Below the pieces are notes generated by a model. The model did no database searches. It was not told where the DNA came from and saw nothing but the letters and a program-made list of their open reading frames with translations. A stretch of 14,590 nucleotides of DNA from a virus. Taxonomy: Duplodnaviria > Heunggongvirae > Uroviricota > Caudoviricetes. A program made the position numbers and the translations under genes. This document shows, one piece after another, positions 1-14,590 of this stretch. The stretch lies in IMG/VR virus record IMGVR_UViG_2585427790_000008. One strand, given 5' to 3'. Position 1 is the first letter of the stretch. Every line of letters starts with the position of its first letter.

Positions 1-216
1 GTGAAAGTCATCATTGTTGAAGACGAATTCCTGGCACAACAGGAACTGAGCTGGCTAATTAAAGAGCACAGCCAGATGGAGATTGTCGGCACCTTTGACG
101 ACGGTCTGGACGTGTTGAAGTTTTTGCAGCATAACCGCGTCGACGCCATTTTTCTGGATATCAATATTCCGTCGCTGGATGGCGTGTTGCTGGCGCAAAA
201 CATCAGCCAGTTATAG
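1..216 (+). pseudogene. ypdB: 5' fragment (71 codons) of a LytTR-family two-component response regulator; receiver domain cut off mid-domain by the prophage insertion
   Basis: ORF translation MKVIIVEDEF...FLDINIPSLDG has the receiver-domain acidic pocket (EDE) and the phospho-acceptor Asp in FLDIN; it matches my recollection of the E. coli YpdB N-terminus up to NISQ and then hits a stop (QL*) where the native protein continues. Symbol is from memory, not from a search. Confidence 0.6.
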
Positions 217-224
217 CGCGGCGA

Positions 225-302
225 TTTTTTTGATACCGATTTGCATTTCATTTGATACCGCTGAAAAACGCCGATACGCAACTTATTTGATACTAAATCG
301 GC
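225..302. repeat. Three direct copies of TTTGATAC(C/T) (228-237, 251-260, 286-294) plus a 7-bp inverted repeat CGCCGAT/ATCGGCG (270-276 / 296-302); candidate transposase-binding end sites
   Basis: Repeats read directly from the sequence, sitting between the host junction and the mom stop. This is the position of the attR R1-R3 sites in Mu; the sequences are not identical to the Mu consensus. Confidence 0.3.
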
Positions 303-339
303 GCTTTTCTTTTGAGTTTTAGAATGAGTTTTTAAGCGT

Positions 340-1077
340 TCATTCACTCTCTTTCAAACCAGTTTTAACTGTTTGTGGTTTTGGGTAAGGCTGGACTTTG
401 AATAGCTTTGTGTTAAGGCGTTTTCTGGCTCTCTTGTCCAGAAACCGGATGTAACGAAACTGACGGAATTTATGAACACTGGCTCTGTCGATATTAGCCC
501 GCAGATGTTCACCTCGCTGTCCTCCTCGTTTGATTGCATTCTTGCAAATCTCGTGATACCACTCGCCATCAAGTTCATAGAATGTTGTTTCATGACTGCC
601 TACATAATCAAAATTGCTTGCCTGGTACACGACACCAAGACAGCCACAACGCTCATCTGCAAACGACTGAACCCACTGCACCTGCGGATAAAGTTGTCTG
701 ATTAGTTTGAGCGCGTAACTGATTGCCCTTGATTCGGAGTTTCTCGGCATACAGTCATGCAGCCATAACCGGTTAAGCTCCATATATTCGCGGTTCTGCG
801 TGCCAGTTACGACGCGTGCACCATTGTTTGGATTAAGGGCATAACCCCATTGCATTACGCCAACCAGCTCCCGTTCTGAAAATATGCCCAGATGAAGGTA
901 GGAATTATTTACGAAACGATGGCTGTAATGTTTATTGACGACGACCAGCCGGGCCAGCCAGCAACTTATTGTCTCAACCCGTAACTCACGGGAGCCATAA
1001 CCGACGATATTGTCGTTATAGTGAATAAGTTCAGGCGTGCTGATGATACGGGATGTAACTTGCTTTCTGTTCCCCAC
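340..1077 (-). CDS. mom: Mom-like DNA-modification protein (start uncertain; GTG at 1075-1077 proposed, ORF is open up to 1272)
   Basis: Last gene before the prophage end, same strand as com and overlapping its 3' end, as in Mu. I do not recall the Mom sequence, so the call is by synteny only. Confidence 0.5.
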
Positions 1078-1231
1078 GACAGGATTTCCTTGTGTATGTG
1101 GGGTGCTCTGTGGCGCTCTGAGATGTGATTTGATTGAGGGTTTTACAGCGCGGACATTTAACTTCCAGATAACTGAAGCTGGCTCGTGCCAGTAGCTTGT
1201 TACAATGTCGGCACCGTATGTTTCGATACAT
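1031..1231 (-). CDS. com: Com-like zinc-finger translational activator of mom
   Basis: [44 protein letters not shown] has the CxxC...CxxC pattern and matches Mu Com (IRCKNCNKLL...IRCPRCK...EHP). AGGAGG lies 10 nt upstream of the ATG at 1229-1231. The track ORF starts 15 codons earlier. Confidence 0.7.
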
Positions 1232-1276
1232 GGCCGCATAACCTCCTGCTTTGTTGTTGATATCTTTATCACTCAA

Positions 1277-1298
1277 TCGATCGACAAAAACGATCGAT
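1277..1298. promoter_or_regulatory. Cluster of two GATC (Dam) sites inside the short palindromes TCGATCGA / CGATCGAT, 48-65 bp upstream of com
   Basis: GATC at 1279-1282 and 1292-1295. Mu mom has a Dam/OxyR-controlled GATC cluster upstream of its promoter. Confidence 0.35.
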
Positions 1299-1487
1299 TT
1301 GATTTATTTAATTGATACAACAAATAACACGAAATGTCATTAGCGAAAATTTATGAGTTTGATCACTAATTTTAAACGGTGCTGTAACGCATAAGTGCTG
1401 AATGATTGTACATTTGAATACCGCAAAGCAAACAAATCAACTAATTTATAGAAGTCAATTGGTTAATTGCCAGCGTAAGAGGCTGCT

Positions 1488-1781
1488 ATGGACAATCATG
1501 TAACGACGAGAAATCGAAAAATGATTGAAAATGCGGAAATCTATAATGATTATTTTTCCGATTATTCAGATGCCTGCAAATACAGTTCGAGTGCGGGAGA
1601 GTTCATATGCTTCAACTTTTTTATTAAATCTTATGTTTTTCCTCCACAGCAAGAAGATGGAGGTGTGCCACCTCCTGAAATCACTTTGCACCGTATAGCC
1701 TCCGTCTCAATGATGGAGCAACAGGCTAATGAGCTGTATAGCATTCTGGGAACGATTCTACAAAAGCGTGAATCGGACTAA
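1488..1781 (+). CDS. Hypothetical protein (97 aa), AT-rich, no recognisable motif
   Basis: ORF with AAGAGG 6 nt upstream of the ATG; lies in a low-GC island between com and the esterase cluster. Confidence 0.3.
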   Translation: MDNHVTTRNRKMIENAEIYNDYFSDYSDACKYSSSAGEFICFNFFIKSYVFPPQQEDGGVPPPEITLHRIASVSMMEQQANELYSILGTILQKRESD

Positions 1782-1948
1782 TGATACCGGTTCATTTGCC
1801 TGCCCGGATGGGGAAGCAGGATTGACTGCTCCATAAGCAGCTATATTTCTGAATACGAAATACTATCCAGCGATTACATATGGCTGGATAGCGGCAAAGA
1901 TGTTTTCATTAGTGTCAAACCGGCAGAGGACACCACCGGTTTGTATTG

Positions 1949-2203
1949 TTACATCATGGTACTGTCAGTTCCGGGCTGAGCCGGGTCTGGTTGCTCTGGC
2001 TGCGCGTCGGTTTTCGGCTCATTATCAGCATCACTGGCCGCAACTGCTGGCCCAATAAGTTTTGCCAGCACTTCATCAACGTAAGTGTCGATTTGTGCCT
2101 CAAAATCCTTGCGGACCTGCGCTTTCAGCAACTTATTTACTTCACCGGAATACAGTGCCTGTTTTACCAGGTCTTCAGTGACGGTGCCTTTAATTTCTGG
2201 CAT
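1949..2203 (-). CDS. Hypothetical protein (84 aa), acidic Pro/Gln-rich C-terminus
   Basis: Strong RBS (AAGGAGGATATACATG). Preferred over the overlapping + strand ORF 1946..2332, which has no RBS. Confidence 0.45.
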   Translation of the reverse strand: MPEIKGTVTEDLVKQALYSGEVNKLLKAQVRKDFEAQIDTYVDEVLAKLIGPAVAASDADNEPKTDAQPEQPDPAQPGTDSTMM

Positions 2204-2238
2204 GTATATCCTCCTTATGCGGGAATAAAGCCCTGCAA

Positions 2239-2421
2239 TCAGGGCTGGGTCGGGTCTTTTGGGAGCGGAGTTACCTGCGCTGTTTTACTGAGTTTTTCAG
2301 CTGCTGCGTCCTCAATTTTGCGGCGAACATAATTTCTGATGGCCTTATAACCACCACTCACCAGATATAACGCACATACTGCCGTGCAGAAATACAATAA
2401 AATAAGCTGTAAAAATGTCAT
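2239..2421 (-). CDS. Small predicted single-pass membrane protein (~60 aa)
   Basis: Hydrophobic stretch FLQLILLYFCTAVCALYLV followed by a basic region. GGGAGGG lies upstream of the ATG at 2419-2421; the track ORF starts at an upstream TTG (2433). Confidence 0.4.
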   Translation of the reverse strand: MTFLQLILLYFCTAVCALYLVSGGYKAIRNYVRRKIEDAAAEKLSKTAQVTPLPKDPTQP

Positions 2422-2517
2422 TATCCCTCCCAATTATTGACATGGTGTTGACACCGGTAATATCTGTTAGGTAAAAAGGTGCACTGCATTTTTTGCTTTG
2501 GATATAACGATCTTTTT

Positions 2518-2558
2518 GCCGCCGGTTTCTTGTTTTCCCTTACCGGCGGCATTTTTTT
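2518..2558 (+). terminator. Stem-loop GCCGCCGGT-(15 nt)-ACCGGCGGC followed by ATTTTTTTAT on the + strand
   Basis: Perfect 9-bp stem with a downstream T7 run on the + strand, just 3' of the esterase stop on the opposite strand. The loop is long, so this is an uncertain terminator. Confidence 0.35.
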
Positions 2559-2565
2559 ATCCTGC

Positions 2566-4620
2566 TTACGCGTTATTCACTTCCACCACGATACTGTCAA
2601 TCAGTACCGGGTAAGTCGCATTTTTAGTGATATCGGTCACGCGCAACTTGTCTGCCGTAAACGTGCCGACCGGAGACTGCGACAGCATGAATGGTGTCCC
2701 GTCCTTACCATCAATGACCGGCGTCACCTCAATACTGTTGTTACCGGCAAAACGGAAGCCCAGCGTATGCCATTCGTTATTAAATGCGCCGAATGACCCC
2801 AGCTTCGTGTTCTGCGCCGTGTTTCCTTTGTGATACATCACGTTAAGGTCTGTGGCATCGCTCTGTACGTAGAACGATGCCAGCAGGTTATGACCGGCAT
2901 TTCCTTCCAGAGTAACCCCTTGCGGCAGGGCAGAAACCGGCCAGTACAGCGCCAGTGCGTACTGATTAGCCGTAAGCGCGCCATCGAGTTTAAAACGACA
3001 ACTGACAAGACCACCTTTACCCAGCAGGTCCGCACCATTACCAGCATCATGCTCAAGGTACCAGGGGGCTCTTCCTGTTTCCTTGGTCAGTTTCATTGCC
3101 TTACCCCCGCTGGCTCCGGCATCATCCACGATTTGAGCCTTGCCACCTCCGGCAGCCCAACCCTGTGGTGTCAACCGTCCTTCAGACTCAGATGCCCGGT
3201 AAGCAAATAGCGTACTCATCGTCGTGGTGTCTGCGGGTGGCGTGGACGGTTTTGATGGTGTATCAGGTGACGGCTTCTCATCCGGTGGTGTCACGGTCTG
3301 CCCGCGCATCAGTTCAGCCGTGCGCCCTGCATGGAGCATAATAGCTGAGGCCAGACGGTCTGAAATGACGCCCCTGCGTGCCCATGAGCTGAAATGGCTG
3401 TCACGCTGTGTCGAAACAAAACTGCCCTGGGTTCGGGATGCTGCACCGTAATACCCGACAGCCACAATATCCGGGTCTTCCGCCGGAGCATTCGTTGGCG
3501 TGCTCTGTCCATTCTCATCCGTCAGGAACGGTACAAAGAAAATTTTCTGTGCTTCCTTGCCTTTGTAGCCACCGTATACTGCCTCATATTTATCGGTGCC
3601 AGCGTTTTTCCAGTAATACGTGGTATCACCGCAAATCCACGGCACCGTGGTGGCATTTCCACTCACGCACTGCGCAGCAAGCGGAGCCAGGTCAGTTCTG
3701 AACTGCTGAACCATGGCCGTGAATAAACTATTATGCTGCTGGCTTCCTGAGGCAAGGTCTGCCTCTCCCTGCATCCAGACCACAGCCAGAAGTTTGTTTT
3801 TCGGGTTTTTCGCCAGCGCGACTTTGGTGCGGCTTACCAGGTCCTGATACAGAGGTTTACCGGCCCCCCAGCGTGAAGAATCAGCGGAAGCACCGCTGGC
3901 CTCACTGAATGAGCCGTCGGCTCCAGTGGTGAATGCTGACCCGCCACGACAACAGGGCACCAGAAGTATCCCGGCATTCTGTGGGATATAGGGAAGCAGT
4001 TTTTTGGCAATATGCAACCCCTGACCGACAGTCCCGTACTGGCCTTTTGCCAGATCAGCTTTCGGGTGGTTTATCCCGCTCATATCCTGAACATCATGCA
4101 GGCAGTGGTCTGCCGGAATGATGTCGTTGTATGTACACGACGTACCGTTGGGCGTTACCGTACTGCGGCGTGCCAGTTGCTTAATGCGTGGGTCCGGGCG
4201 GTCAAACGAATCCGGTAACGGCAGCCCCTCGCCGTAGGCCATGCCATTTGACTGACCCGCGAGAATGACAACAAAGTAATATTCCGGCTCTGAACTGCTG
4301 CCATTCGTGCTACCGGAAGGCCCGGCGTTATCCGGTGCATTCCAGTCGGAGGGCGTGAGCGTTCCGGCCACGTCAGATGTGATTGGAATGATGCCAGTCA
4401 CGCCTGAACTGGTGATTTCTGCACTGGGATTACCGGATACCGGCATTACCCATAATGGCTCTTTCGTGCTGAAGCGGATCACGCAGTCTGCGAAGGTGAT
4501 CCCCCCTTTATTACCCGAAGGGCGGAAAGGGCTTTCAATAAATGCCACCGTGCCACCGGCAACCTTGACTGAAAACTCTCCGGGCATGGCGGAGAGCATT
4601 TTCCACTTGGAGTCTGACAT
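2566..4620 (-). CDS. SGNH/SASA-family sialate O-acetylesterase-like protein (prophage NanS-p-like), 684 aa
   Basis: GQSN catalytic-serine motif (VVILAGQSNGMAYGEG) and downstream WMQGEAD motif typical of SASA esterases; Ser/Thr/Pro-rich linkers; long C-terminal beta-rich region. Confidence 0.7.
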   Translation of the reverse strand: MSDSKWKMLSAMPGEFSVKVAGGTVAFIESPFRPSGNKGGITFADCVIRFSTKEPLWVMPVSGNPSAEITSSGVTGIIPITSDVAGTLTPSDWNAPDNAGPSGSTNGSSSEPEYYFVVILAGQSNGMAYGEGLPLPDSFDRPDPRIKQLARRSTVTPNGTSCTYNDIIPADHCLHDVQDMSGINHPKADLAKGQYGTVGQGLHIAKKLLPYIPQNAGILLVPCCRGGSAFTTGADGSFSEASGASADSSRWGAGKPLYQDLVSRTKVALAKNPKNKLLAVVWMQGEADLASGSQQHNSLFTAMVQQFRTDLAPLAAQCVSGNATTVPWICGDTTYYWKNAGTDKYEAVYGGYKGKEAQKIFFVPFLTDENGQSTPTNAPAEDPDIVAVGYYGAASRTQGSFVSTQRDSHFSSWARRGVISDRLASAIMLHAGRTAELMRGQTVTPPDEKPSPDTPSKPSTPPADTTTMSTLFAYRASESEGRLTPQGWAAGGGKAQIVDDAGASGGKAMKLTKETGRAPWYLEHDAGNGADLLGKGGLVSCRFKLDGALTANQYALALYWPVSALPQGVTLEGNAGHNLLASFYVQSDATDLNVMYHKGNTAQNTKLGSFGAFNNEWHTLGFRFAGNNSIEVTPVIDGKDGTPFMLSQSPVGTFTADKLRVTDITKNATYPVLIDSIVVEVNNA

Positions 4621-4705
4621 CGTCTTTTCTGCCTGTTTCTGAATTAAACAGAGTCAGAATAGCGACCGCTGAAAAATATGTGTTTTGCGGAAATTCAAAA
4701 AAGCG

Positions 4706-5277
4706 TCACGGTACTTTTGGTGACGGAGCTGGTGAGGCAGGAAAATAACGATAAAGGGTGGAAAGGCCAATATCAAATATCAGTGCGATTTGTTTACGGG
4801 ACTCGCCATTAGCCAGCAAACGGGCGATTTGCTCCCGCTCTTTCTCTGTCAGTTTCTGAGGTCTGCCGCCATGACGCCCCTGAGCACGGGCAGCAGCAAG
4901 ACCCGCGCGTGTACGTTCAATAATGAGTTCCCGCTCCATTTCCGCCAGCGCGCCCATTATATGGAAAAGAAACGTCCCATGGGAGTGGATGTATCAATAT
5001 TGTCCGTAATGCTGCGGAAGTTAACGCCGCGTTGCCGGAGTTCTTCTGTTAAAAGGACAAGGTGCTGCATACTGCGTCCAAGGCGATCCAGTTTCCAGAC
5101 CAGCAGGGTATCCCCTGGCCGGAGTCGCTTTAATGCGCGTTTAAGTCCGGGACGCTCCCTTGTCTTACCGCTTATTCTGTCTTCGAAAAACAGCTCACAT
5201 CCTGCACATTCCAGCGCATTTCTTTGTAGCGCCGTATTCTGGTCATTTGTTGACACCCTGATATACCCAATCAGCAT
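4706..5277 (-). pseudogene. gin: Gin/Pin/Hin-family serine DNA invertase split by a -1 frameshift
   Basis: N-terminal ORF MLIGYIRVSTNDQ...PMGRFFSI* and C-terminal ORF MGALAEMERELIIERT...STLYRY match Mu Gin either side of ...MGRFFFHVMGALAEMERE. One T is missing from a T-run (+ strand A4 at 4955-4958). Confidence 0.8.
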
Positions 5278-5342
5278 ACGATTTCCTTATTATAAAAAGC
5301 CGGAATTGTCGCATGAGGAATAAAACAGAGTTAATCCTGGCT

Positions 5343-5368
5343 TTCCTGAAAACCTCGGTTTACGGGAA
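5343..5368. other. gix/hix-like 26-bp recombination site TTCCTGAAAACC-TC-GGTTTACGGGAA (invertase-proximal)
   Basis: Imperfect 12-bp dyad half-sites around a 2-bp core, resembling Mu gix and Salmonella hix; sits at the outer edge of the inverted repeat. Confidence 0.6.
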
Positions 5369-5481
5369 ACGGTAAACAGGGCGGCGAATGCCCTGCCATC
5401 GGACGGCACCGCCGTTGCCGCGAACAGGCTGGCAAATGCCCACACAATTAATGGTGTTCCCTTTGACGGGACGCAGGATAT
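5355..5481. repeat. Inverted-repeat copy (proximal), ~127 bp, imperfect, paired with 6547..6673
   Basis: The + strand 5355-5481 aligns by eye with the reverse complement of 6547-6673. Both encode [26 protein letters not shown]...[12 protein letters not shown]. Confidence 0.8.
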
Positions 5482-5707
5482 CACTATCTCATCAGGAACA
5501 GTAACCGCCATAAGACTGGGGTCGGTGACCGCACATATGCCCGGAACATGGGAAAGCTGGGATCTGAATCTGGGGGGCGGCAATGTTCTTACCGGAATTA
5601 AAGTACAGGATGTCGGTAAGAATACGGCAGATAACGTCGGCGGCGTGTATTACCGGCCGTTGCAGTATCTGTTAAATGGAGCATGGGTGACGGCTGCAAG
5701 TATATAA
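5356..5707 (+). CDS. Promoterless alternative tail-fibre C-terminal cassette (Sv'-like), silent in the present orientation
   Basis: Frame open from the crossover site to TAA at 5705-5707. Starts with the same 26 residues as the active fibre C-terminus, then diverges (...[21 protein letters not shown]...YRPLQYLLNGAWVTAASI*). Confidence 0.6.
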
Positions 5708-5715
5708 TGATATTC

Positions 5716-5740
5716 AGAAGGCCTTCCGGCCTTCTTTATT
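5716..5740 (+). terminator. Hairpin AGAAGGCC-TTCC-GGCCTTCT followed by TTTATT, between the convergent cassette and assembly-gene stops
   Basis: 8-bp perfect stem with a T-rich tail on the + strand, located between the stop at 5705-5707 and the minus-strand stop at 5739-5741. Confidence 0.4.
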
Positions 5741-6260
5741 ACTGTGGCTGCTCAGGCCATTTAATGGCGTTAAATTCAGCTTCTGTTTTAATGGCGGGGA
5801 GTTCCATTTTTTTTACCTGACTGATGTATGCCATCCATTGGGTAAGTGCTGCTCTGTCTTCATCGCTGATGGTGCCCAGTTGTAGCTCCGTTCTCCAGTC
5901 ATTAATTTTTTCATATGCCTGATTAAGATATGACTGGCGCATTGCTTCCAGTTTTCTTGCGTAGTTAACCGGAATACGGGAGATTATGCCATTATCAAAC
6001 TTCCAGTTTCCTGAAATATCCGTGCCTTCAGGGAGTTCATCGACCTCAACCACAGAAAACCCCGCAGGATACAGCGCCGAGGCGTCCTGTGATATTGAGC
6101 AGATAACGCCGCTGTCAGGTGTTATGCAAAGTTTATATTTTTTGGTGAATAATGGCAGGGATTCGTAGAAATCCTTACCATCTTCACTCTGGAAATACTG
6201 AACATTATTACCATATGGCATATTTTCAGGATAATAACGGGTTGTATTTTTTAGTTCCAT
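5739..6260 (-). CDS. Tail-fibre assembly chaperone (Mu U / Tfa-like), 173 aa
   Basis: C-terminal region ...ISGNWKFDNGII...LQLGTISDEDRAALTQWMAYISQVK...WPEQPQ resembles Mu U (...LGIISDENKQKLTEWMLYAQKV...FPEQPE); lies immediately downstream of the tail-fibre gene. Confidence 0.8.
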   Translation of the reverse strand: MELKNTTRYYPENMPYGNNVQYFQSEDGKDFYESLPLFTKKYKLCITPDSGVICSISQDASALYPAGFSVVEVDELPEGTDISGNWKFDNGIISRIPVNYARKLEAMRQSYLNQAYEKINDWRTELQLGTISDEDRAALTQWMAYISQVKKMELPAIKTEAEFNAIKWPEQPQ

Positions 6261-6311
6261 AAAATCCTCCTGGAAATAAATCTGTTTTAAAATATATTAT
6301 TTACTGACTAT

Positions 6312-7202
6312 TTATAACTGAGATACCGTAATCCATGTACCTCCGACTAATTTTTGCAGGGGTCTGAATGCTATAAAATCGTTTGAAGCATCAACTTTAC
6401 TGTCAATCTGCAGGCCTGCCATAACATTACCGTACGCAGAGTAATATGCCCCACCGTACATTACCTGCCTGTTCTCTGCTCCCAGCCTGATATCCTGGAT
6501 ATATCGGGAATCCGCATCCTGCTGTGTTATACCAGAAGTGATGTTTATGTCCTGCGTCCCGTCAAAGGGAACCCCATTAATATTTCTTGGGGTGGCGAGT
6601 CTATTCGCGGCAACGGCGGTGCCGTCCGATGGCAGAGCATTCGCCGCCCTGTTTACCGTTTCCCGTAAACCGACGTTATCGATAAAAGCCCCTTTATCCG
6701 GAATGTCTGCGCCGTTCTGCTCCCTGCGCAGGTAACGGTTATCACCTTCGCTTTTGCTGTAAACATCCAGATTATTACGGGCGGTTCCCTTATTCTCCAG
6801 GTCGGCGAGATTCTGATCCTTCGCCAGGGCATTAACGTCAGCGGGACCAAGACTGTTTTTTGTGGCAAGCGTCCCCAGACCAAGATAACCACGGGCCAGA
6901 CGCTGGGCCTCCGCACCGGCATCAGCAATTTCTTTCAGGTTATTTTTCCGGGAAAAGGCATTCGCAGCGATAATGGCTTTAATGGACAGCGTAAGCTGGT
7001 TTAACTGCGCCTTATCCGGCTGAATACTGGCTTCAGCCAGAATATTCAGCAGTTCGGCCTGGAGAATATTCAGCCAGTCCTGACCAATCCAGCTGATACC
7101 TTTTTGTCCGTCACCTTCGGTAAACCAGGTGGTGGTATTACTCTGCGCTGGTGCCAGCGCAGGCATATTCGCCACGCCGGAATTATTATCAACATGAAAC
7201 AT
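6312..7202 (-). CDS. Tail-fibre protein (Mu S-like), 296 aa, with its C-terminal third inside the invertible segment
   Basis: N-terminus [27 protein letters not shown] is typical of Mu/P2-type fibres; start overlaps the upstream stop (TAATG coupling). Confidence 0.8.
6547..6673. repeat. Inverted-repeat copy (distal), within the tail-fibre coding sequence
   Basis: Reverse complement matches 5355-5481 apart from a ~22-bp divergent patch and scattered mismatches. Confidence 0.8.
6661..6686. other. gix/hix-like 26-bp recombination site (distal); reverse complement reads TTATCGATAACG-TC-GGTTTACGGGAA
   Basis: Shares the right half-site and the TC core with the proximal site; the left half-site resembles hixR-type TTATCAAAAACC. 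Confidence 0.55.
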
Positions 7203-7762
7203 TAAATAGTCTCCTCTTCATGGCTGTTTGCATACACGTAAATAAACGTCTGCCATGCAGGCTTATAACGGTTCAGAATACATTCCAGCGCACCGCCTTC
7301 ATAAATACGCAGCGGCGTGAGAATATCATCCAGCACATTCATATTCCGGTAGCCGGTTTCACTGTTAATCGTGACAATACTGACCCACTGTGAATCCGGT
7401 GATGGCTGAATATCTATTTCATAACCAAACTCTGCCGCAAACCGGATATAAAATTCACGGTTAAGAGAGGGTTTCATCCGGTATTTATTCCCGGCATAAC
7501 GCTGACGCTCCTGAATGGTTGCGCCGGTCATATCACATTCCGGTAACCCCAGATAACGCTCCCAGTCTTCCAGCAGCAGACGAGATGAATCAGGAAAACG
7601 TTCTGCCAGCATCTGGTTACCGGTCCAGGAAACACGCTCCGTGGAATGACTGAGGCCCAGGCACAAAGCCGCAAGAACGGATGACGGCCGCTTATCCCAT
7701 GCCAGCCCGTCAGGCAGCAACTGCAACAGGGCACGCTGATGCGGGGTCAGGGTTACAGCCAT
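7202..7762 (-). CDS. Baseplate/tail protein, Mu gp48-like (DUF2313/YmfQ-like), 186 aa
   Basis: Size and position between the J-like baseplate gene and the tail fibre; start overlaps the upstream gene end. Confidence 0.65.
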
Positions 7763-8838
7763 GTGATTTCCCCCACGGTCAGCAACTCTGTATCTCCGGC
7801 CATCACGGACTTCAGCGGGCTGCGAACTTCAAAATCCTCCAGTCCTTTCACCCCTGCAACAGCCCGCCAGAATGATGAAGGCAATACAAGTCCACCCGGC
7901 CGCGATTCGTTATAAAGCAGGTCCGTTAATGCCTGTTTTACGGCAGCCTGATTTTCCGGCGTTTTGGGTACAATCCTGATCTCAAACGCCACCGGCTTAT
8001 TGGTCAGCTTAAACACGCTGATTGTCGGCCCAAGTGGCTGACCAACGGGCTGGCCCGTCGCCGGATCATCATGACTGCGGATATAATCCGCCACCCGCTT
8101 CACATCACCTTCTCCGGGGAAAATGTCAGGGTTATTATCCTGAACAAAAGTCACACCAACACTACCCGCCTCAGGCCATTCAGGCTTACACCATGCCCGC
8201 GTCACGCCCGGTACTTCCCGTGCCCAGCGTTCAAAATCATACTGTGTTCCCCCTGATGGCGGGTTCTGTACCCGGAATACCAGCCTGGACAGCAACTCCG
8301 GCACCGTTTCCACATCCGCACCACCGGTGAGTCCCGTGCCGGTGACCGTGGCTGTCTGGTTGATGCCTGCCTGTGGCGTGATAAAGGACAGGCGGGTTCC
8401 GGTCGGGGTATTTCCAGCGCGCCCCGCACTTTCCGCCTCCACATTAACATTCAGTGTTCCAGCTTTTCCGGTCGCAGAGCCGGTGATGCGGTACACAACA
8501 CCATCGCTTCGCTGAAGGAGTACGCCTTCCGTGATCCCTGCATCCGTGGTCAGCATCAGTTGTACCGGTCCGTCAGCGCGGGAAGCCGGTTTACGGATGA
8601 CACCCCAGAATGCGCAGTGTTTCAGGAGTTCGGCTTCATCAGCTTCTGTCGGAATTATCTGCCGGGAGATCCAGGCCAGATGTTCATGCTCCTGTGCTGA
8701 CAGACCCGCCAGTGCATACGCAATGGCATTCAGGGTGGTTTCATTCACGCCCGGCTGCGAACCGGGCAGGCGCTGGCTGATATCCTGTTGTGTCTGTGTG
8801 ATCAGTTGCGCCAGTGGTAAGGGCTGATAAGGCATCAT
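7753..8838 (-). CDS. Baseplate J-like protein (Mu gp47-like), 361 aa
   Basis: Size and order typical of a baseplate wedge gene; overlapping stop/start coupling with neighbours. Confidence 0.7.
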   Translation of the reverse strand: MMPYQPLPLAQLITQTQQDISQRLPGSQPGVNETTLNAIAYALAGLSAQEHEHLAWISRQIIPTEADEAELLKHCAFWGVIRKPASRADGPVQLMLTTDAGITEGVLLQRSDGVVYRITGSATGKAGTLNVNVEAESAGRAGNTPTGTRLSFITPQAGINQTATVTGTGLTGGADVETVPELLSRLVFRVQNPPSGGTQYDFERWAREVPGVTRAWCKPEWPEAGSVGVTFVQDNNPDIFPGEGDVKRVADYIRSHDDPATGQPVGQPLGPTISVFKLTNKPVAFEIRIVPKTPENQAAVKQALTDLLYNESRPGGLVLPSSFWRAVAGVKGLEDFEVRSPLKSVMAGDTELLTVGEITWL

Positions 8839-9272
8839 TCCCCCTTCATATCAGCATAAAAAATCATCGGATGTCTGCTTCCGTCCGGCAGGGTGATTTT
8901 CACGGAAAGCGAAAGGCGAGCATGCCCCACACGCATGGCATGACATACCACGGATGTGGCAGCACCGCTTTTATGCAGCCACGCCAGCGCTTCATCAGCA
9001 TAGGCCTGTGCACGGCTGACCACGGAGGACAGCGTCTTTTCACGGCTTAACAGCCAGAGACGGGAGCCAACGGGGCGCTCCCGGAAACTGTCTCCCCACC
9101 ATCCCCGACGGTCACGGGTGCCGTCAGGGATTTCATCGGAATCCAGCGCCCGCCTGTCCGTAAACAGTGAAATAATGACCGCAGTCAGCAGGCTGTTATC
9201 CGTCAGAAGATCTGCGCCGTTCAGTTGCAGGGAACCGCAACCCTGATCCCAGACGACAGCAATATCAGCCAT
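8835..9272 (-). CDS. Baseplate protein, Mu gp46 / P2 gpW-like (~145 aa)
   Basis: Start placed at the internal ATG (MADIAVVWDQ...), which overlaps the upstream gene end by 8 nt; the track ORF is extended 71 codons into the upstream gene. Confidence 0.65.
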   Translation of the reverse strand: MADIAVVWDQGCGSLQLNGADLLTDNSLLTAVIISLFTDRRALDSDEIPDGTRDRRGWWGDSFRERPVGSRLWLLSREKTLSSVVSRAQAYADEALAWLHKSGAATSVVCHAMRVGHARLSLSVKITLPDGSRHPMIFYADMKGE

Positions 9273-9879
9273 TCTCTGGTCCTCCCGTTTTGCTGCCTTC
9301 ACCGTTATCGTGATGCACATGACCTGAATAGGTGATCCCGGCAATAACCGCTTCGGACATCGTGAACGTCCCCTGTGATCTTCCGGTGCCGTCAATGGAC
9401 ACATTGCCTTTGACATGCAGGTTCTTATCCACTGTGACATTACCGGTAAAGTGAGCCTCCGGTGTATCCACCTGAACACCTTCATCGGCGTAAATCTCCA
9501 GCGTCTTACAGGTCACAATGATCCGGCCGTTCTTTGTCAGACGTATACGGTGCCCCTCATGGTGATACACGCCGGTATCTCCGGCGGTAAGTCCGGTCGG
9601 GCGACTGCGGCGGTCTTCCACCACAAGCACCACGGCCTGATCCCGTTGTCCGCCAGCACAGGCCAGAAAAACTTCCGCACCAGGCAGGGGGACGCTGATT
9701 TGCCCGTACTGCTGGGGGCGTTCAACGTCATCAAAGGTTTCACCATCCATACCGGTGATTTGCACATTCTGGATTTTCAGCGTGTCCGTTGTGCCGGTCA
9801 GTACACCACGCCCGAACAGCAGACGAACACCCCGCATCACGGGGGCCAGAAGGCGGCTGATGACTTCGTCATTCATCAT
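9265..9879 (-). CDS. Baseplate central spike protein (Mu gp45 / P2 gpV-like), 204 aa
   Basis: Size and order; Gly-rich beta-strand-like C-terminus; coupled to flanking genes. Confidence 0.7.
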   Translation of the reverse strand: MMNDEVISRLLAPVMRGVRLLFGRGVLTGTTDTLKIQNVQITGMDGETFDDVERPQQYGQISVPLPGAEVFLACAGGQRDQAVVLVVEDRRSRPTGLTAGDTGVYHHEGHRIRLTKNGRIIVTCKTLEIYADEGVQVDTPEAHFTGNVTVDKNLHVKGNVSIDGTGRSQGTFTMSEAVIAGITYSGHVHHDNGEGSKTGGPENG

Positions 9880-10993
9880 TGAATTTAATCCCCTGTTTTT
9901 TCATCTGTGCCCGCACGAAGGCGTCCACGTCACCCGCATTTCCGCTTCCGCTGTTTCCCGGCTCTGCCGGAACAATAAAGCCGTCACGGGGTGCCAGAAT
10001 CAGACGGGTGGTTTCGCCGTGATTTGCATCCAGCGAAAACTCCACCTGACAGACAAGAAGATCACGCTCTTCCACTCCGGTGCGGGGAGCCGTGACAGCC
10101 GTCAGCAGGTTGATATCCCACAACTGGCCGTTCTCCCGAAACCAGTGCCGCACGGTGGCTGTCAGGCGCACAGAGCGGGCAACCGCCCGGCGCATTTCCC
10201 GGACAGCCCTCTGGCGTGCACCGTCTGCATCAACAGCATGATCCGCCAGCACAATTTTCGGTCTGTAACGGTGGATGGCACTGTCTGTCACCGTACCAAC
10301 GGGTGCGGCCAGCGTTCCGGCTGTCAGTGCATCCCCGGCATGACCACCACCACGCCCGTGCCCCCGTACACGGTATTCACTGTGGCGCAGACGGTGATCC
10401 ACGTTGTGATCCAAATCCAGCAGATTTTCGCCCAGCGTCAGCGTGTCGCCACGCTGACTGCCGGCCTGAGTGAAAACCAGTTCACCGGCGGCATTACTGG
10501 TTACCAGGACGCCTCTGTGTCTCGCGGCCCGTGTCAGCGCATCTGCCACGGTTTCTGAGTTTTCCAGTGTGAAGGTGGAAAAGTGCCGGGCTGCCGTTGC
10601 ATCATTTACCTGCCAGCGCACCGTGACCCCGAACGGAGCACACAAATCTGAAGCAATGTGCTCCAGCGTGCGGTTCCTCCACTGGCTGCCCGGATGAATG
10701 GCTGAACAGTCCACCAGGTCACCGGTTTTATCCCGTCCGCTGAGCGTGATCTGAAAACGCGTGGCGCTGATGCGCTGCCGGACCTGATCCAGCCAGCCAG
10801 TGATCACAGGCTGACCGTCAATGCGCAATTCCAGAGACTGACCGGCACGGACGGATGACGGAAGGCGTACACCGGGCATCATTACCCCCAGTTCAAAGGA
10901 GCCCGCCAGATGTTCAAGAGAGCGACGAACACTCACCGTCAGCCAGCCGGAAAAAATCTCACCGCCCAGATACAGTTCAACCCTGCTGCTCAC
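9869..10993 (-). CDS. Baseplate hub/tail protein (Mu P/gp44, P2 gpD-like), 374 aa, GTG start
   Basis: Size and order; GTG at 10991-10993 preceded by GGAGGTGA; first gene of the retained tail module. Confidence 0.7.
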
Positions 10994-11046
10994 TAATCAC
11001 CTCCACTGAATGGCCTCCGGGAATGAACAGCGGATCAACAATACCG

Positions 11047-11454
11047 TTACGGCGCACAAAACGTTGCCAGCCGGTACTGTTCCCGGTGGCACGGTACAGG
11101 GTCACCAGTGCAGGCTCGGTGGTACGTACAGTCACTACTGTTGCACCGGGTAACGTTAATACAGCCCATCAGGCGAACCGCCTGAAACAGTGCGCGCAGC
11201 TCCTGGACTGTCTGAGTTTCCACAAACTGCGGCGGTTCCGGCAGTGCGCTTTGTTTATTCCAGTTCTCATACCAGGAGCGCAGGGAAGCAGCCACAGCAG
11301 CGTTATCGCCTTTATATTTTCCCTTACGGAAAGCCGATAATGTGCCGTCGGAAATTCCCGCCTCTCTGGCGATGGCATACTGCGTCAGTACGCCGCCATC
11401 AATAAGTTCATCAATGGTCTTGATTACATCGTTAATATCGGTCATATTATTCAC
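11047..11454 (-). pseudogene. Truncated Mu B-like transposition protein: N-terminal DNA-binding domain only, AAA+ ATPase domain deleted
   Basis: ...AIAREAGISDGTLSAFRKGKYKGDNAAVAASLRSWYENW...LPEPPQFVETQTV aligns with the MuB N-terminus (...LPEPPRFVETQTV); the Walker A box (GNPGVGKT) expected next is absent and the frame ends 35-40 codons later. Confidence 0.75.
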
Positions 11455-11527
11455 CTCGCTTGAGACAGCATTCTCCGAGACTGAAACCTCAAATAACCTG
11501 AGTCACCCCTCGGGTTATTTTTTTATT

Positions 11528-13618
11528 TCAGGCCAGCGGATCACTTTCTTTTAATTTCGCTTCGAGCAGTTGCAATCCCCGCTGGAAATTACGCTCGTAT
11601 TCTTCATCAGGTTCATCGTCAGCGACCGGTTGCTGAACGGTCACCGTATTACCCACAGGGCGGTATATGTTTTCCAGCCAGGGCTCCTGCGGCTTGTGCT
11701 CCAGCACGTTGACAACCTCATCCTCGGCATCACGGATTTTTTCCTCTGCGCGTTTACGCATGCCTTTAAGGCGCTGCTGCTGTTTGTAGTATTCCGCGCT
11801 GACAGGGAAGGCTTCGCGTTTATTGCCGTCCCATACCGCCTCGCAAATCACGCTGCCATCCGGGCGGCGCACGGTAATTCGTTCGGCATCATGAATGTCA
11901 TAGCTGATAAGTACCTTACGGCCATGCTCGTCACGCAGCTCGGGCGCGTAGTAAATATTATTCAGCCAGCGTATTTCACAGCGTCTTACAGGGCGCTCCA
12001 CCATCGGCCGGAACATATCCCGCAGTTCAACATCGGACAGCCATTCAATTTCCGTGTCCTCTTCCGCCAGGCGTTTTTTTCTGAACTCCGCCGGGCTGTA
12101 ATGTTTACCGTTCGGCTTCATGGGTAATTCATCGTGCGGCCGGTTGTTGTACCACTCAACACCGTCACGAATGGCATCAATCAGTTCAGACCAGGACGGT
12201 AAATCACGCATCGCTGACTGCTGCCGGGCGTTCAGCCGTTTGCCCTGTTGCAGGGCACTGAATGCCGAGCGTAAATCGCGGTTGGTTTTACGTAACGTCT
12301 CGCGATCTGCTCCTTTCCCGAAATAGGTGCGGTATTTACGGGCTATGCGCATCGGTAATGTGCGGTTAAGCCGTTCGATAATGCCCCGTCCCTGCGGATT
12401 ACCGGCAATCCCTGTCGGGTGATTAATCCCCAGTCGTGGCAGTATCCCCACAATCTCCTTATCCAGGACGTCGGCGGTTTCCCCGGAGCCATTATCCGAG
12501 TAATACAGAAACGGTTTGCCATGATGGCGAATACCGTGCTGTATGGCACCGGCTACGGCGAAAACATTTTCAGCCAGGTCAAGGCTCCAGCCCACCACAA
12601 AGCGCGTGCCACCGTCGATAACAAAGGTCACTTCCGGTGCGAATGGCCGCCCGTGAACCGGGTGCGCGCATTTCAGCTTCATGCCGTGACCGTCACCAAT
12701 CCAGACATAATTCACCGGCATTCTGGACCAGTCGCGGCGCGTGAATCCCTCAAGCTGACGGTATTCACTGCCAGTTACCCGGCCTTTTTGTTTCACCACT
12801 TCCGGCAGTTTCTTCATTGCGCGGCGAATGGTGTCATAAGAGGGCATGATATCGAGCATATAAGGCTCATCAGCGTGCCGGTGCTGCCATTCAGCAACAA
12901 AATCCTCGTAAGCCTCGGTCATTGGTCGGCCGTTTGACTGGCGATACTGCGCCAGAAATTCGGGCAGCCAGTTAATATCTTCGGCTTTTATTTCCTGGCG
13001 TTTACCCGGTGCCAGTAAAAGCAGGCGTTCAGCGGCGTTCTGTGCCTTGTTAAAGGCCGCAATCCAGCGTTTCAGCGTGATTTCACTCAACGCGCGGCTG
13101 TTTCCCTTTTTGGCGTTCGCCGTCTCAACCATTGCCACAATGCGCTCGTCCAGTTGTGATCGTGCCAGGCTGTTAACGAGGAACCGGATAGCCTTAGCGC
13201 AACTAAAGCCGGGTTGTTGCGCGATTTTCAGCACCTCGCTGACGATCGCTATTCGTGCCTCTGCCACTTTACGTTGGTTTTCAGTCAGGGCATTGAGGCG
13301 TTCGACCATCAGTTGGGGTGATCCGCGATATGCCTCCACCGCATCAACCACGGCAGGTGAGCGTCTGGCCTTTGTCACCACCGGAGCCGGTGATTCATCG
13401 GCTTTTTGCGTCATCAGTTGCAGGGCGTAGCGTTCACGTAATGCCTGCTGCGTCACTTCAGGTAAACAGTCGATGCTGTATTCAGTTGCTTTAGAGCCTG
13501 AGCGACGACGGGAACAACAGCTTTTCCCTTGTACGTAACGTTGTAATGCCTGGCGAATACCTTTTGTTGTAGCAGGCATTCCGGGCGCGCCAATCAGTTC
13601 TTTTGCAATGACATACAT
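11528..13618 (-). CDS. Mu A-like DDE transposase, 696 aa, apparently intact
   Basis: Length and position after ner; candidate DDE residues in WIGDGH, YYSDNGSGE and IIERLNR, spaced as in MuA. Confidence 0.8.
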   Translation of the reverse strand: MYVIAKELIGAPGMPATTKGIRQALQRYVQGKSCCSRRRSGSKATEYSIDCLPEVTQQALRERYALQLMTQKADESPAPVVTKARRSPAVVDAVEAYRGSPQLMVERLNALTENQRKVAEARIAIVSEVLKIAQQPGFSCAKAIRFLVNSLARSQLDERIVAMVETANAKKGNSRALSEITLKRWIAAFNKAQNAAERLLLLAPGKRQEIKAEDINWLPEFLAQYRQSNGRPMTEAYEDFVAEWQHRHADEPYMLDIMPSYDTIRRAMKKLPEVVKQKGRVTGSEYRQLEGFTRRDWSRMPVNYVWIGDGHGMKLKCAHPVHGRPFAPEVTFVIDGGTRFVVGWSLDLAENVFAVAGAIQHGIRHHGKPFLYYSDNGSGETADVLDKEIVGILPRLGINHPTGIAGNPQGRGIIERLNRTLPMRIARKYRTYFGKGADRETLRKTNRDLRSAFSALQQGKRLNARQQSAMRDLPSWSELIDAIRDGVEWYNNRPHDELPMKPNGKHYSPAEFRKKRLAEEDTEIEWLSDVELRDMFRPMVERPVRRCEIRWLNNIYYAPELRDEHGRKVLISYDIHDAERITVRRPDGSVICEAVWDGNKREAFPVSAEYYKQQQRLKGMRKRAEEKIRDAEDEVVNVLEHKPQEPWLENIYRPVGNTVTVQQPVADDEPDEEYERNFQRGLQLLEAKLKESDPLA

Positions 13619-13619
13619 A

Positions 13620-13868
13620 TCATGACGCCTTTCTCATATAGCTCTTAACCTGGTATCGACTGGGCCAGATTTCTTCAGGTGATACCCCAAGAGCATCAGC
13701 AATTATTTGCTGATACGGTCGGCAAGGAGTACGTAATACGCTTTTCAGCGAATCCCTGCTGTAACCAGCCTTTAAAGATAAAGAGCGCAGTGATAAGCCA
13801 GCCATGTGTAAGCGCGCCTTGATGATTTCAGGCGGCCAATCGTGATCTGAAACTTCTCTTCTACTCAT
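13620..13868 (-). CDS. ner: Ner-like DNA-binding regulator, 82 aa
   Basis: ...LSLRSLSLKAGYSRDSL...QQIIADALGVSPEEIWPSRY matches Mu Ner (...LSLSALSRQFGY...EQIIANALETKPEVIWPSRY); RBS GAGGAAG upstream; ends 1 nt before the A start. Confidence 0.85.
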   Translation of the reverse strand: MSRREVSDHDWPPEIIKARLHMAGLSLRSLSLKAGYSRDSLKSVLRTPCRPYQQIIADALGVSPEEIWPSRYQVKSYMRKAS

Positions 13869-14059
13869 ACTTCCTCTATTCTAAAAAGTTACCCGCGCGG
13901 ATATTCGTGCGGATATCTGTACGGGTAAATAATGCATCACCAAAAATACCAAATCAAGGTATTTTTGGTATTTTTGGCTAATTTTTGCTTTTACCCTTAT
14001 TTTTCAATTGGATAAATAGAAAGAAACCTTTCCTTAGAAAAGCACCAAGAGGTATCTTT
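13869..14059. promoter_or_regulatory. Divergent repressor/ner control region with operator-like palindromes
   Basis: CCAAAAATACC-7 nt-GGTATTTTTGG followed by a tandem TATTTTTGG, between divergently oriented c and ner (~13941-13976). Confidence 0.5.
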
Positions 14060-14590
14060 ATGTCGCAGGGAAAAGAACCTGTTATTGAACGTATTGGAAT
14101 GCTTACAAAGCGCTACCCTTCAAGAAGTGCAGCTGCCAGAGCGTGGGGAATCAATATCAACACATTAAACAGCTATTTCAAGGGAGGACAAACACAACCA
14201 GCCCCCAGAGAAAGTATCCTTATACGAATTTCTGAAAGTGAAGGCGTTAGTCTTGAGTGGCTTAAAGAGGGCAAGGGTGAATTACCAAACGATATTGGTA
14301 TTTATGGTAATTTTGGTTGTTCTGGTGATAAGGGAGATCAGCTTACACAGATGCTTTCATTCCTTACGAAAGACGAACGAGAACAGTTAACCAATCTCCT
14401 TGCTCGCAAAGGTGTAGAGACGGTTCTGACACTGCTGAATAAAGAAAACCAGGATTTATTACAACTAGAAGGCAGGAAGCGCCTGGCTGCGTTGATGATT
14501 GTAGATATGCCAGACGATTGCGTCAGAGAGATTTTGGAAAAAACCGAGACAAGTAGGCAATCAAATCCGGTAGAATCTAAAGCGGGTTAG
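14060..14590 (+). CDS. Mu c-type prophage repressor (176 aa); stop codon is the last 3 nt of the window
   Basis: Divergent from ner across an operator region; start chosen at the ATG with AAGAGG 7 nt upstream (the track ORF starts 25 codons earlier at 13985). Confidence 0.65.
   Translation: MSQGKEPVIERIGMLTKRYPSRSAAARAWGININTLNSYFKGGQTQPAPRESILIRISESEGVSLEWLKEGKGELPNDIGIYGNFGCSGDKGDQLTQMLSFLTKDEREQLTNLLARKGVETVLTLLNKENQDLLQLEGRKRLAALMIVDMPDDCVREILEKTETSRQSNPVESKAG

Follow-up and report, generated by a model that had tools for sequence, protein, structure and literature searches.

A 14.6-kb defective Mu-like prophage in Escherichia coli ypdB in which a deletion joins the early genes to a baseplate and tail-fibre block

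The DNA stretch analysed here (IMG/VR record IMGVR_UViG_2585427790_000008; 14,590 nucleotides, referred to below as the window and numbered from its first letter) is a defective Mu-like prophage of 14.6 kb that interrupts ypdB in a human Escherichia coli clone. The window is 100% identical to one contig of the E. coli assembly GCA_000714225.1, and its truncated B protein (B′) is named in source databases under E. coli 5-172-05_S4_C2 and C3; a literature search on the accession numbers gave no match. The 5′ part of the host gene occupies window 1–216 and is followed directly by the right end of the prophage. A 5-bp target duplication, CAGTT, is present at both prophage ends within ypdB, and terminal transposase-binding repeats are found as three copies of TTTGATAC at the right end (229–293) and as GTATCAAA repeats at the left end, read in the locus L004. 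The gene ypdB, which encodes the response regulator of the YpdA/YpdB system, is split after codon 71 (window 1–216 and L004 6380–6630) and is inactivated in the clone carrying the window. The element reads attL, c, ner, A, B′, a deletion, N′, P through U, the G segment, gin′, an esterase gene, com, mom and attR, with all prophage genes from ner to the esterase on the minus strand and c divergent on the plus strand.

The gene map is based on six-frame open reading frames (ORFs) combined with Pfam and PHROG scans; an Rfam scan of the window returned nothing at E ≤ 1. The repressor gene c (14060–14590, plus strand) is intact and encodes 176 aa identical to the repressor of the intact JE86-ST05 prophage (PHROG 3037, transcriptional repressor, E 7e-61). 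Across a divergent control region (13869–14059) lies ner (13620–13868; Pfam HTH_35, E 2.5e-19; PHROG 769), followed after 1 nt by the intact 696-aa DDE transposase gene A (11528–13618; Pfam Mu-transpos_C and HTH_Tnp_Mu_1) and, after 82 nt, by the B′ ORF (11047–11445), which retains the first 98 residues of the AAA+ protein B; its start is the ATG at 11445, a GTG at 11454 having been rejected. After a further 53 nt begins the baseplate and fibre block, consisting of the gp44/P baseplate hub (9869–10993; Pfam GpP-like_1st, Gp44-like_2nd and GpP_4th), the gp45 spike (9265–9879; Pfam Phage_Mu_Gp45 and Phage_spike), gp46 (8835–9272; Pfam GP46, start taken from the annotation of the related prophage L002), gp47, baseplate J (7753–8838; Pfam Baseplate_J, E 4e-61), gp48 (7202–7762; Pfam Phage_Mu_Gp48), the tail fibre gene S (6312–7202; PHROG 1833, E 4e-129) and the fibre assembly gene U (5739–6260; Pfam Caudo_TAP). 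The genes from gp44 through S overlap and 51 nt separate S from U, the final gene of the predicted fused unit.

Inverted repeats at 5348–5433 and 6595–6680 bound an invertible segment that contains the 3′ part of S. The gin-type invertase gene (4706–5277), which a preliminary description of this DNA had counted as probably among the co-oriented genes, is frameshifted in an alignment with the intact L002 gene: a 1-nt deletion in a T run near 4962 leaves the Pfam Resolvase and HTH_7 matches on two separate ORFs. It lies 461 nt beyond U and 85 nt ahead of the esterase gene (2566–4620; Pfam SASA and DUF6645), beyond which are DUF1378 and DUF826 genes and com and mom, the latter two identified by Pfam. 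The co-orientation described earlier is confirmed, with no gap above 82 nt from ner through U and a longer one between U and gin. Across this frameshifted gin, the nine loci that reach it are uniformly 99.7–100% identical to the window. The segment itself (5348–6680; read also in L003, L011 and L021) occurs in both orientations among clones sharing the deletion, its inversion presumably being catalysed in trans by another invertase.

A single deletion of ~24 kb, measured against the JE86-ST05 relative, fuses B at codon 98 to the 3′-terminal 174 nt of N (gp43, DNA circularization protein), 159 nt upstream of the gp44 start. The retained part of N (10977–11150) corresponds by translation to the last 57 residues of L002 gp43. 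Base-by-base comparison with both parents placed the junction at 11151–11152, where a TA dinucleotide is the only sequence common to the two and constitutes a 2-bp microhomology. From 11151 upward the window is 100% identical to intact prophages with a full-length B. From 11152 downward it is 99.9% identical to prophages of Shiga toxin-producing E. coli (STEC) of the type of Sp18, the Mu-like prophage of E. coli O157:H7 Sakai that is reported to be intact, spontaneously inducible and packaged (PMC2669165), and the corresponding sequence in these prophages is the 3′ end of N. The B part of B′ ends 3 residues short of the Walker A motif GVPGVGKT, which is lost, and the frame continues through 34 out-of-frame N codons to a stop at 11047, 53 nt ahead of the gp44 GTG, with the GGAGG preceding this start kept. 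PHROG 296 (DNA transposition protein) matches residues 1–98 of the fusion only. There was no sign that the joining of the two sequences had created a promoter or a terminator: no promoter-like site was found at the junction, and its fold, which is only marginally more stable than shuffled sequence (z-score −1.95, with 7/200 shuffles at least as stable), contains no terminator-type hairpin.

Independent assemblies in NCBI, ENA and Logan carry the identical 132-aa fusion ORF on 43 contigs, including two complete GenBank chromosomes and independent metagenome assemblies with the same flanks. Ten of these places were read; all lie at one chromosomal site and differ from the window, outside the invertible segment, by 0–4 single-nucleotide polymorphisms (SNPs) plus a difference in operator repeat number. 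The junction was absent from the RefSeq complete E. coli genomes, and an exact search of a one-genome-per-species collection gave no match, as expected of a strain-level feature. The junction is therefore real but restricted to one young clone. Three synonymous differences within 16 nt of U (5799, 5811 and 5814) set the loci L005, L006 and L007 apart from the window and look like a small recombination or gene-conversion patch and not like independent mutations. In L006, positions 1–5000, ~1 kb past the ypdB remnant and at the place of ypdC in other strains, carry a different phage-like region with a helix-turn-helix (HTH) repressor, DUF3102, GemA and a 129-aa Mor-family protein.

The deletion removed the B ATPase, the remaining early genes and the lysis, head, sheath, tube and tape-measure genes. 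Also lost were the one strong intrinsic terminator in the early operon, the sole activator of the Mor/C family and all upstream late promoters. Terminators were scored with a d'Aubenton-Carafa type d-score (d), calibrated on Mu and on intact relatives of the window, with d > 0 counted as positive and a listing cut-off of −8; this replaced a first, permissive scan that had listed dozens of irregular hairpins. Over positions 1–11000 of phage Mu, the sole positive site was 9179–9193 (d 24.1), directly after mor, the position assigned to the Mu early terminator. The intact relatives likewise have one strong intrinsic terminator on the transcribed strand, located between gemA and the Mor/C-family gene (L002 39262–39279, d 24). 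By pattern search, this early terminator was present in all six intact prophages that encode the exact A protein of the window and in none of four deletion derivatives. On the minus strand of the window, no site with d > 0 was found from 14590 down to 2245. A tblastn search detected no Mor/C homologue in the window. The P-operon late promoter fragment of Mu/D108 that has been used experimentally (PMC4461284) maps 328–413 nt upstream of the P start, inside N, and thus beyond the 159 nt that the window keeps. The loss of the late activator and of the late promoter upstream of P, proposed in the preliminary description, is confirmed on both counts.

The stretch between A and gp44 contains no recognizable start or stop signal for transcription of the block. 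In 10994–11560 on the minus strand, the best sigma-70 position weight matrix (PWM) score was 4.6, compared with 7.9 ± 2.0 for the best site in shuffled sequence, and a consensus promoter scan found no site; nor was there a match to the late-promoter box described below (PWM score ≤ 9). Two hairpins occur here, neither more stable than shuffled sequence, and no terminator above threshold separates A from gp44. The inverted repeat between A and B (11491–11520) forms only a weak minus-strand RNA structure (~−7 kcal/mol in the permissive scan, z −1.1, under the listing cut-off), is terminator-like on the plus strand only and has the same sequence in intact prophages, in which transcription has to pass it to reach B and later genes. 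The hairpin in the N remnant (11064–11092), followed by TTTT, is sub-threshold (d −2.7, folding free energy (ΔG) −15.4, z −1.5), and a site of like score (d −2.3) lies inside the Mu early operon, upstream of the Mu early terminator. Both hairpins are present in intact phages upstream of genes that need transcription. Rho-dependent polarity appears unlikely in the untranslated gaps of 82 and 53 nt, because these are short and richer in G than in C.

The c–ner control region (191 bp) contains putative operators and a candidate early promoter, Pe. A palindrome formed by ACCAAAAATACC and GGTATTTTTGGT spans 13939–13969 and overlaps 9-bp repeats of GGTATTTTT at 13957–13975. The best sigma-70-like site on the minus strand consists of TTGATT (13957), a 17-nt spacer and CATTAT (13934–13929), with a score of 8.2; Pe is assigned to 13957–13929 as a candidate by position only, by analogy with Mu. 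Tandem 12-bp repeats (13894–13917) adjoin the ner ribosome-binding site and are possible Ner sites; they sit in a hairpin (13890–13929) followed by T5 (d −5.2), which is also present in intact relatives. The tandem GGTATTTTT repeat just upstream of the candidate Pe −35 varies in number among near-identical clones, with two copies in the window, three in L006 and four in L005, while the intact JE86 prophage has one full and one 8-bp copy. This variation could alter the number or spacing of operators.

The late promoters of this phage family are, judging from their sequences, built on a box different from the Mu C-box. The Mu C-binding motif (CATAACCC-type, taken from Mu promoter oligonucleotides; PMC4461284) had no meaningful match in the window or in Sp18-type relatives. 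Upstream of the lysozyme and protease (I) genes, two relatives have in common ttcTGAaatTCCGCAAAnCCnGCC, with TAyGCT starting 30 nt after CCGCAAA, giving a derived late-promoter motif that begins ttcTGAaatTCCGCAAA and has TAyGCT 30 nt downstream. A PWM for this C-box was built from six sites, which score 25–33 against ≤ 14 for everything else; the training sites are few and the mom promoter is not detected by it. No match was found between the control region and U, or inside the tail region of intact L002. The head and tail genes of L002 may thus form one long unit transcribed from the I promoter, and the promoter that served gp44–U is gone either way, whether it lay inside N or at I. A weak box-like sequence in N of L002 (~21563, ~370 nt upstream of gp44), which falls in the part deleted from the window, has two core mismatches and the wrong spacing and was rejected as a P-operon promoter. 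A further exact CCGCAAA box is found at 1421 on the plus strand, with TTTGAATA before it and a poorer −10 spacing; it precedes an ORF of 97 aa (1488–1781, plus strand) to which no function was assigned and which is oriented against com and mom. In intact relatives, the early terminator hairpin has CCCCAAAtCCCGCC just before it and TATTTT after it (L002 39245–39295; L001 13750–13790). The arrangement is similar to the late-promoter box and could represent a promoter for the single Mor/C-type gene that overlaps the terminator.

The only C-box match on the minus strand of the window lies in front of the esterase gene (4690–4656, with an exact CCGCAAA at 4690–4684 and TATTCT at 4661–4656 in the correct spacing); its score of 29.7, compared with ≤ 9 elsewhere in the window, is that of one of the six sites used to build the PWM. 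The same element precedes the esterase genes of L002 (~14837), L014 (~7495) and L024 (~20770). In type it matches the late promoters of the lysis and head genes, with TATTCT or TATGAT 29 nt downstream of CCGCAAA. The SASA/DUF6645 esterase therefore appears, from these promoter sequences, to be an activator-dependent late gene in this phage family, and the window copy would be an orphan late gene needing an activator in trans. Between U and the esterase lie several further features. A GC-rich hairpin directly after the U stop (5716–5735, ΔG −14.8 kcal/mol, z −4.4, with 0/200 shuffles as stable) has no U tract on the minus strand and is the probable 3′ boundary of the fused unit, where termination is an assumption and not a prediction of the scan. 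It is followed by the 461 untranslated nt, which are antisense to the alternative fibre end and in which C is slightly above G, by the frameshifted gin and by a hairpin with T6 after gin (4703–4726, minus strand, d −7.4). The proposal that esterase expression is tied to derepression of the prophage is not supported by this arrangement, and on present evidence the esterase would lie outside the read-through unit.

The prophage is a mosaic and its decay is not confined to the window. Positions 212–4772 and 11151–14590 are ~99.3% identical to the JE86-ST05 prophage, whereas the baseplate module (6522–11152) is 98.9% identical to an Sp18-type prophage and only 83% identical to JE86; L002 is equated with Sp18 by inference from the O157 matches. 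The exact A protein of the window was matched in 2479 index blocks and at many chromosomal sites, which indicates that the phage family is active. At the same ypdB insertion, the locus L022 has an identical flank, left end, c, ner, A and 5′ part of B; it carries a full B and a different internal deletion, which joins gp11 to the G-I-T head genes. In L021, from the same neighbourhood, the stretch ypdC′-ypdB-attL-c is lost, and with it the repressor, the left end and the insertion-side flank, and two other internal deletions are present. L024, at another site, has an insertion sequence (IS)-associated deletion in which the IS separates the early genes from the fibre gene. The early terminator and the activator are missing from all three. 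Decay has thus given rise to several independent forms, the window among them, a pattern that speaks for accident and against design.

Taken together, these features suggest that the deletion produced a passive fusion of gp44–U to the repressor-controlled early operon, a decay accident without selected function; we regard this as probable, with considerable room for the alternatives discussed below. The illegitimate deletion of ~24 kb at the 2-bp microhomology left gp44–U with no identifiable transcription signals of their own, close behind the B′ stop, as a predicted operon fusion with the early genes. While c is intact, the early promoter would be kept off and gp44–U would be silent. Upon inactivation of c, polymerase starting near 13930 would run for ~8.2 kb through ner, A, B′ and gp44–U, and the transcript would probably end at or after the 5716–5735 hairpin, or by Rho in the untranslated stretch that follows. 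Such predicted read-through is the only identifiable expression route for gp44–U, since no promoter of their own, no C-box and no above-threshold terminator was identified. The preliminary description had named it the likeliest route for the whole tail module, and it survives for gp44–U, where terminator, activator and promoters are lost, and not for the invertase and the esterase, from which the unit is separated by the 5716–5735 hairpin and, for the latter, by a C-box of its own. A tail cannot be assembled from baseplate proteins alone. The gp44–U remnant is probably repressed under normal conditions and functionless. Several observations weigh against this explanation. The score of the Pe candidate is no better than that of the best shuffle site; the hairpin and U5 in the ner leader could attenuate transcription, and the hairpin and U4 at 11064–11092, 70 nt before gp44, could end part of the transcripts; the six-site C-box model misses the mom promoter, so that a divergent activator site could have escaped it; and Sp18 was not induced by mitomycin C (PMC2669165), which bears on how c would be inactivated naturally.

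The same hairpins are central to the alternative that the baseplate and fibre block is simply dead, with little or no transcription reaching gp44 after derepression owing to sub-threshold hairpins, Rho, H-NS or a fast shut-off by Ner; its genes would then be on the way to becoming pseudogenes. Intact ORFs do not speak against this, as the clones are only 0–4 SNPs apart and the ORFs are consequently uninformative on selection, and the frameshift in gin together with the sibling strains shows that decay is continuing. The two hairpins with U tracts, however, both also precede, in intact phages, genes whose expression is required, a comparable sub-threshold site is tolerated upstream of the terminator inside the Mu early operon, and the gap before gp44, being only 53 nt long and G-rich instead of C-rich, is a poor Rho substrate. 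We consider a dead block to be the less likely outcome, although a serious one. Activation of the remnant late genes in trans, through a Mor/C-type activator supplied by an intact Mu-like prophage in the same cell and not by derepression of the element itself, is improbable. Suitable donors would be at hand, given a median of 2 and up to 8 matching places of related prophages per E. coli genome and an active family whose A protein is found at many sites and whose member Sp18 has its DNA packaged (PMC2669165), and the esterase has kept a canonical C-box promoter. With no C-box from the control region to U, such an activator could serve the esterase and perhaps com/mom but not gp44–U; the Mu activator C, moreover, also requires the sliding clamp for transcription (PMC12867686).

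That the junction is an assembly or sequencing artefact joining two Mu-like prophages might be suspected from its two sides, which best match different prophages (a JE86-type early region and an Sp18-type baseplate), and from its absence in RefSeq complete genomes. The recurrence of the identical fusion ORF on 43 independently assembled contigs, two complete chromosomes among them, leaves this with practically no probability, and the return to JE86-type sequence in the right-hand module is what a mosaic parent would give, unlike a chimera of two loci. It is also very doubtful that the element, with both ends, the repressor, ner and an intact transposase, acts as a natural mini-Mu, in which the early promoter would drive a complete baseplate and fibre cassette that supplies alternative baseplates or fibres upon derepression or upon induction of a related helper phage in the same cell, or in which the element is mobilised and packaged, making it a satellite-like donor of host range; the variable 9-bp operator repeat could tune the frequency of such events.

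Whichever of its genes are read, the window element resembles known systems. In common with the Mu early operon, it has divergent c and ner genes, a repeat-rich control region, the order ner-A-B and Mu transposase domains. The early unit of Mu and that of the intact relatives of the window each end at one strong intrinsic terminator, and the predicted fused unit of ~8.2 kb is about as long as the distance from the Mu ner start (1099) to the Mu terminator (9179–9193). The window differs in that this terminator and the genes from B codon 98 to the end of N are absent, so that the fused unit would carry structural genes where Mu has accessory early genes; its control region also has no Mu match in a near-identity (megablast) search, and its family, as seen in the intact relatives, has one Mor/C-type gene where Mu has two, mor and C. 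With Sp18 and its STEC relatives the window shares not only the baseplate module, most closely next to the junction, but also the layout of the right end, with an invertible fibre segment, invertase, SASA/DUF6645 esterase, DUF1378, DUF826, com and mom; unlike Sp18, it lacks the ~24 kb that include the replication helper B and the lysis, head, sheath, tube and tape-measure genes. The window element is like laboratory mini-Mu and Mud derivatives and Mu X mutants in that it keeps both ends, c, ner and A and has lost B function and the lethal or lytic functions, and in that cargo downstream of the early genes would come under Pe control. It differs from these in having arisen naturally, in carrying the phage's own baseplate and fibre module as cargo and in occupying one site in all ten places read, with no sign of transposition. 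In classical deletion operon fusions, such as those of lac to a neighbouring operon, loss of the upstream terminator and the downstream promoter places the downstream genes under upstream regulation; the fusion described here is, by comparison, a sequence-based prediction and does not come from a phenotype or a selection.

In sum, the window is a defective Mu-like prophage with a predicted deletion-made operon fusion, and for now it mainly records one way, out of several, in which a single prophage insertion has decayed in an E. coli lineage. The late-promoter motif and the early terminator identified here can help to annotate Sp18-type prophages. If the predicted read-through is true, the element would be a clean natural case in which one deletion takes phage structural genes out of late control, dependent on an activator, and puts them under early control, dependent on a repressor. 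It would also offer a defined system in which to ask if remnant baseplate and fibre genes are ever expressed, or traded with Mu-like phages resident in the same cell.

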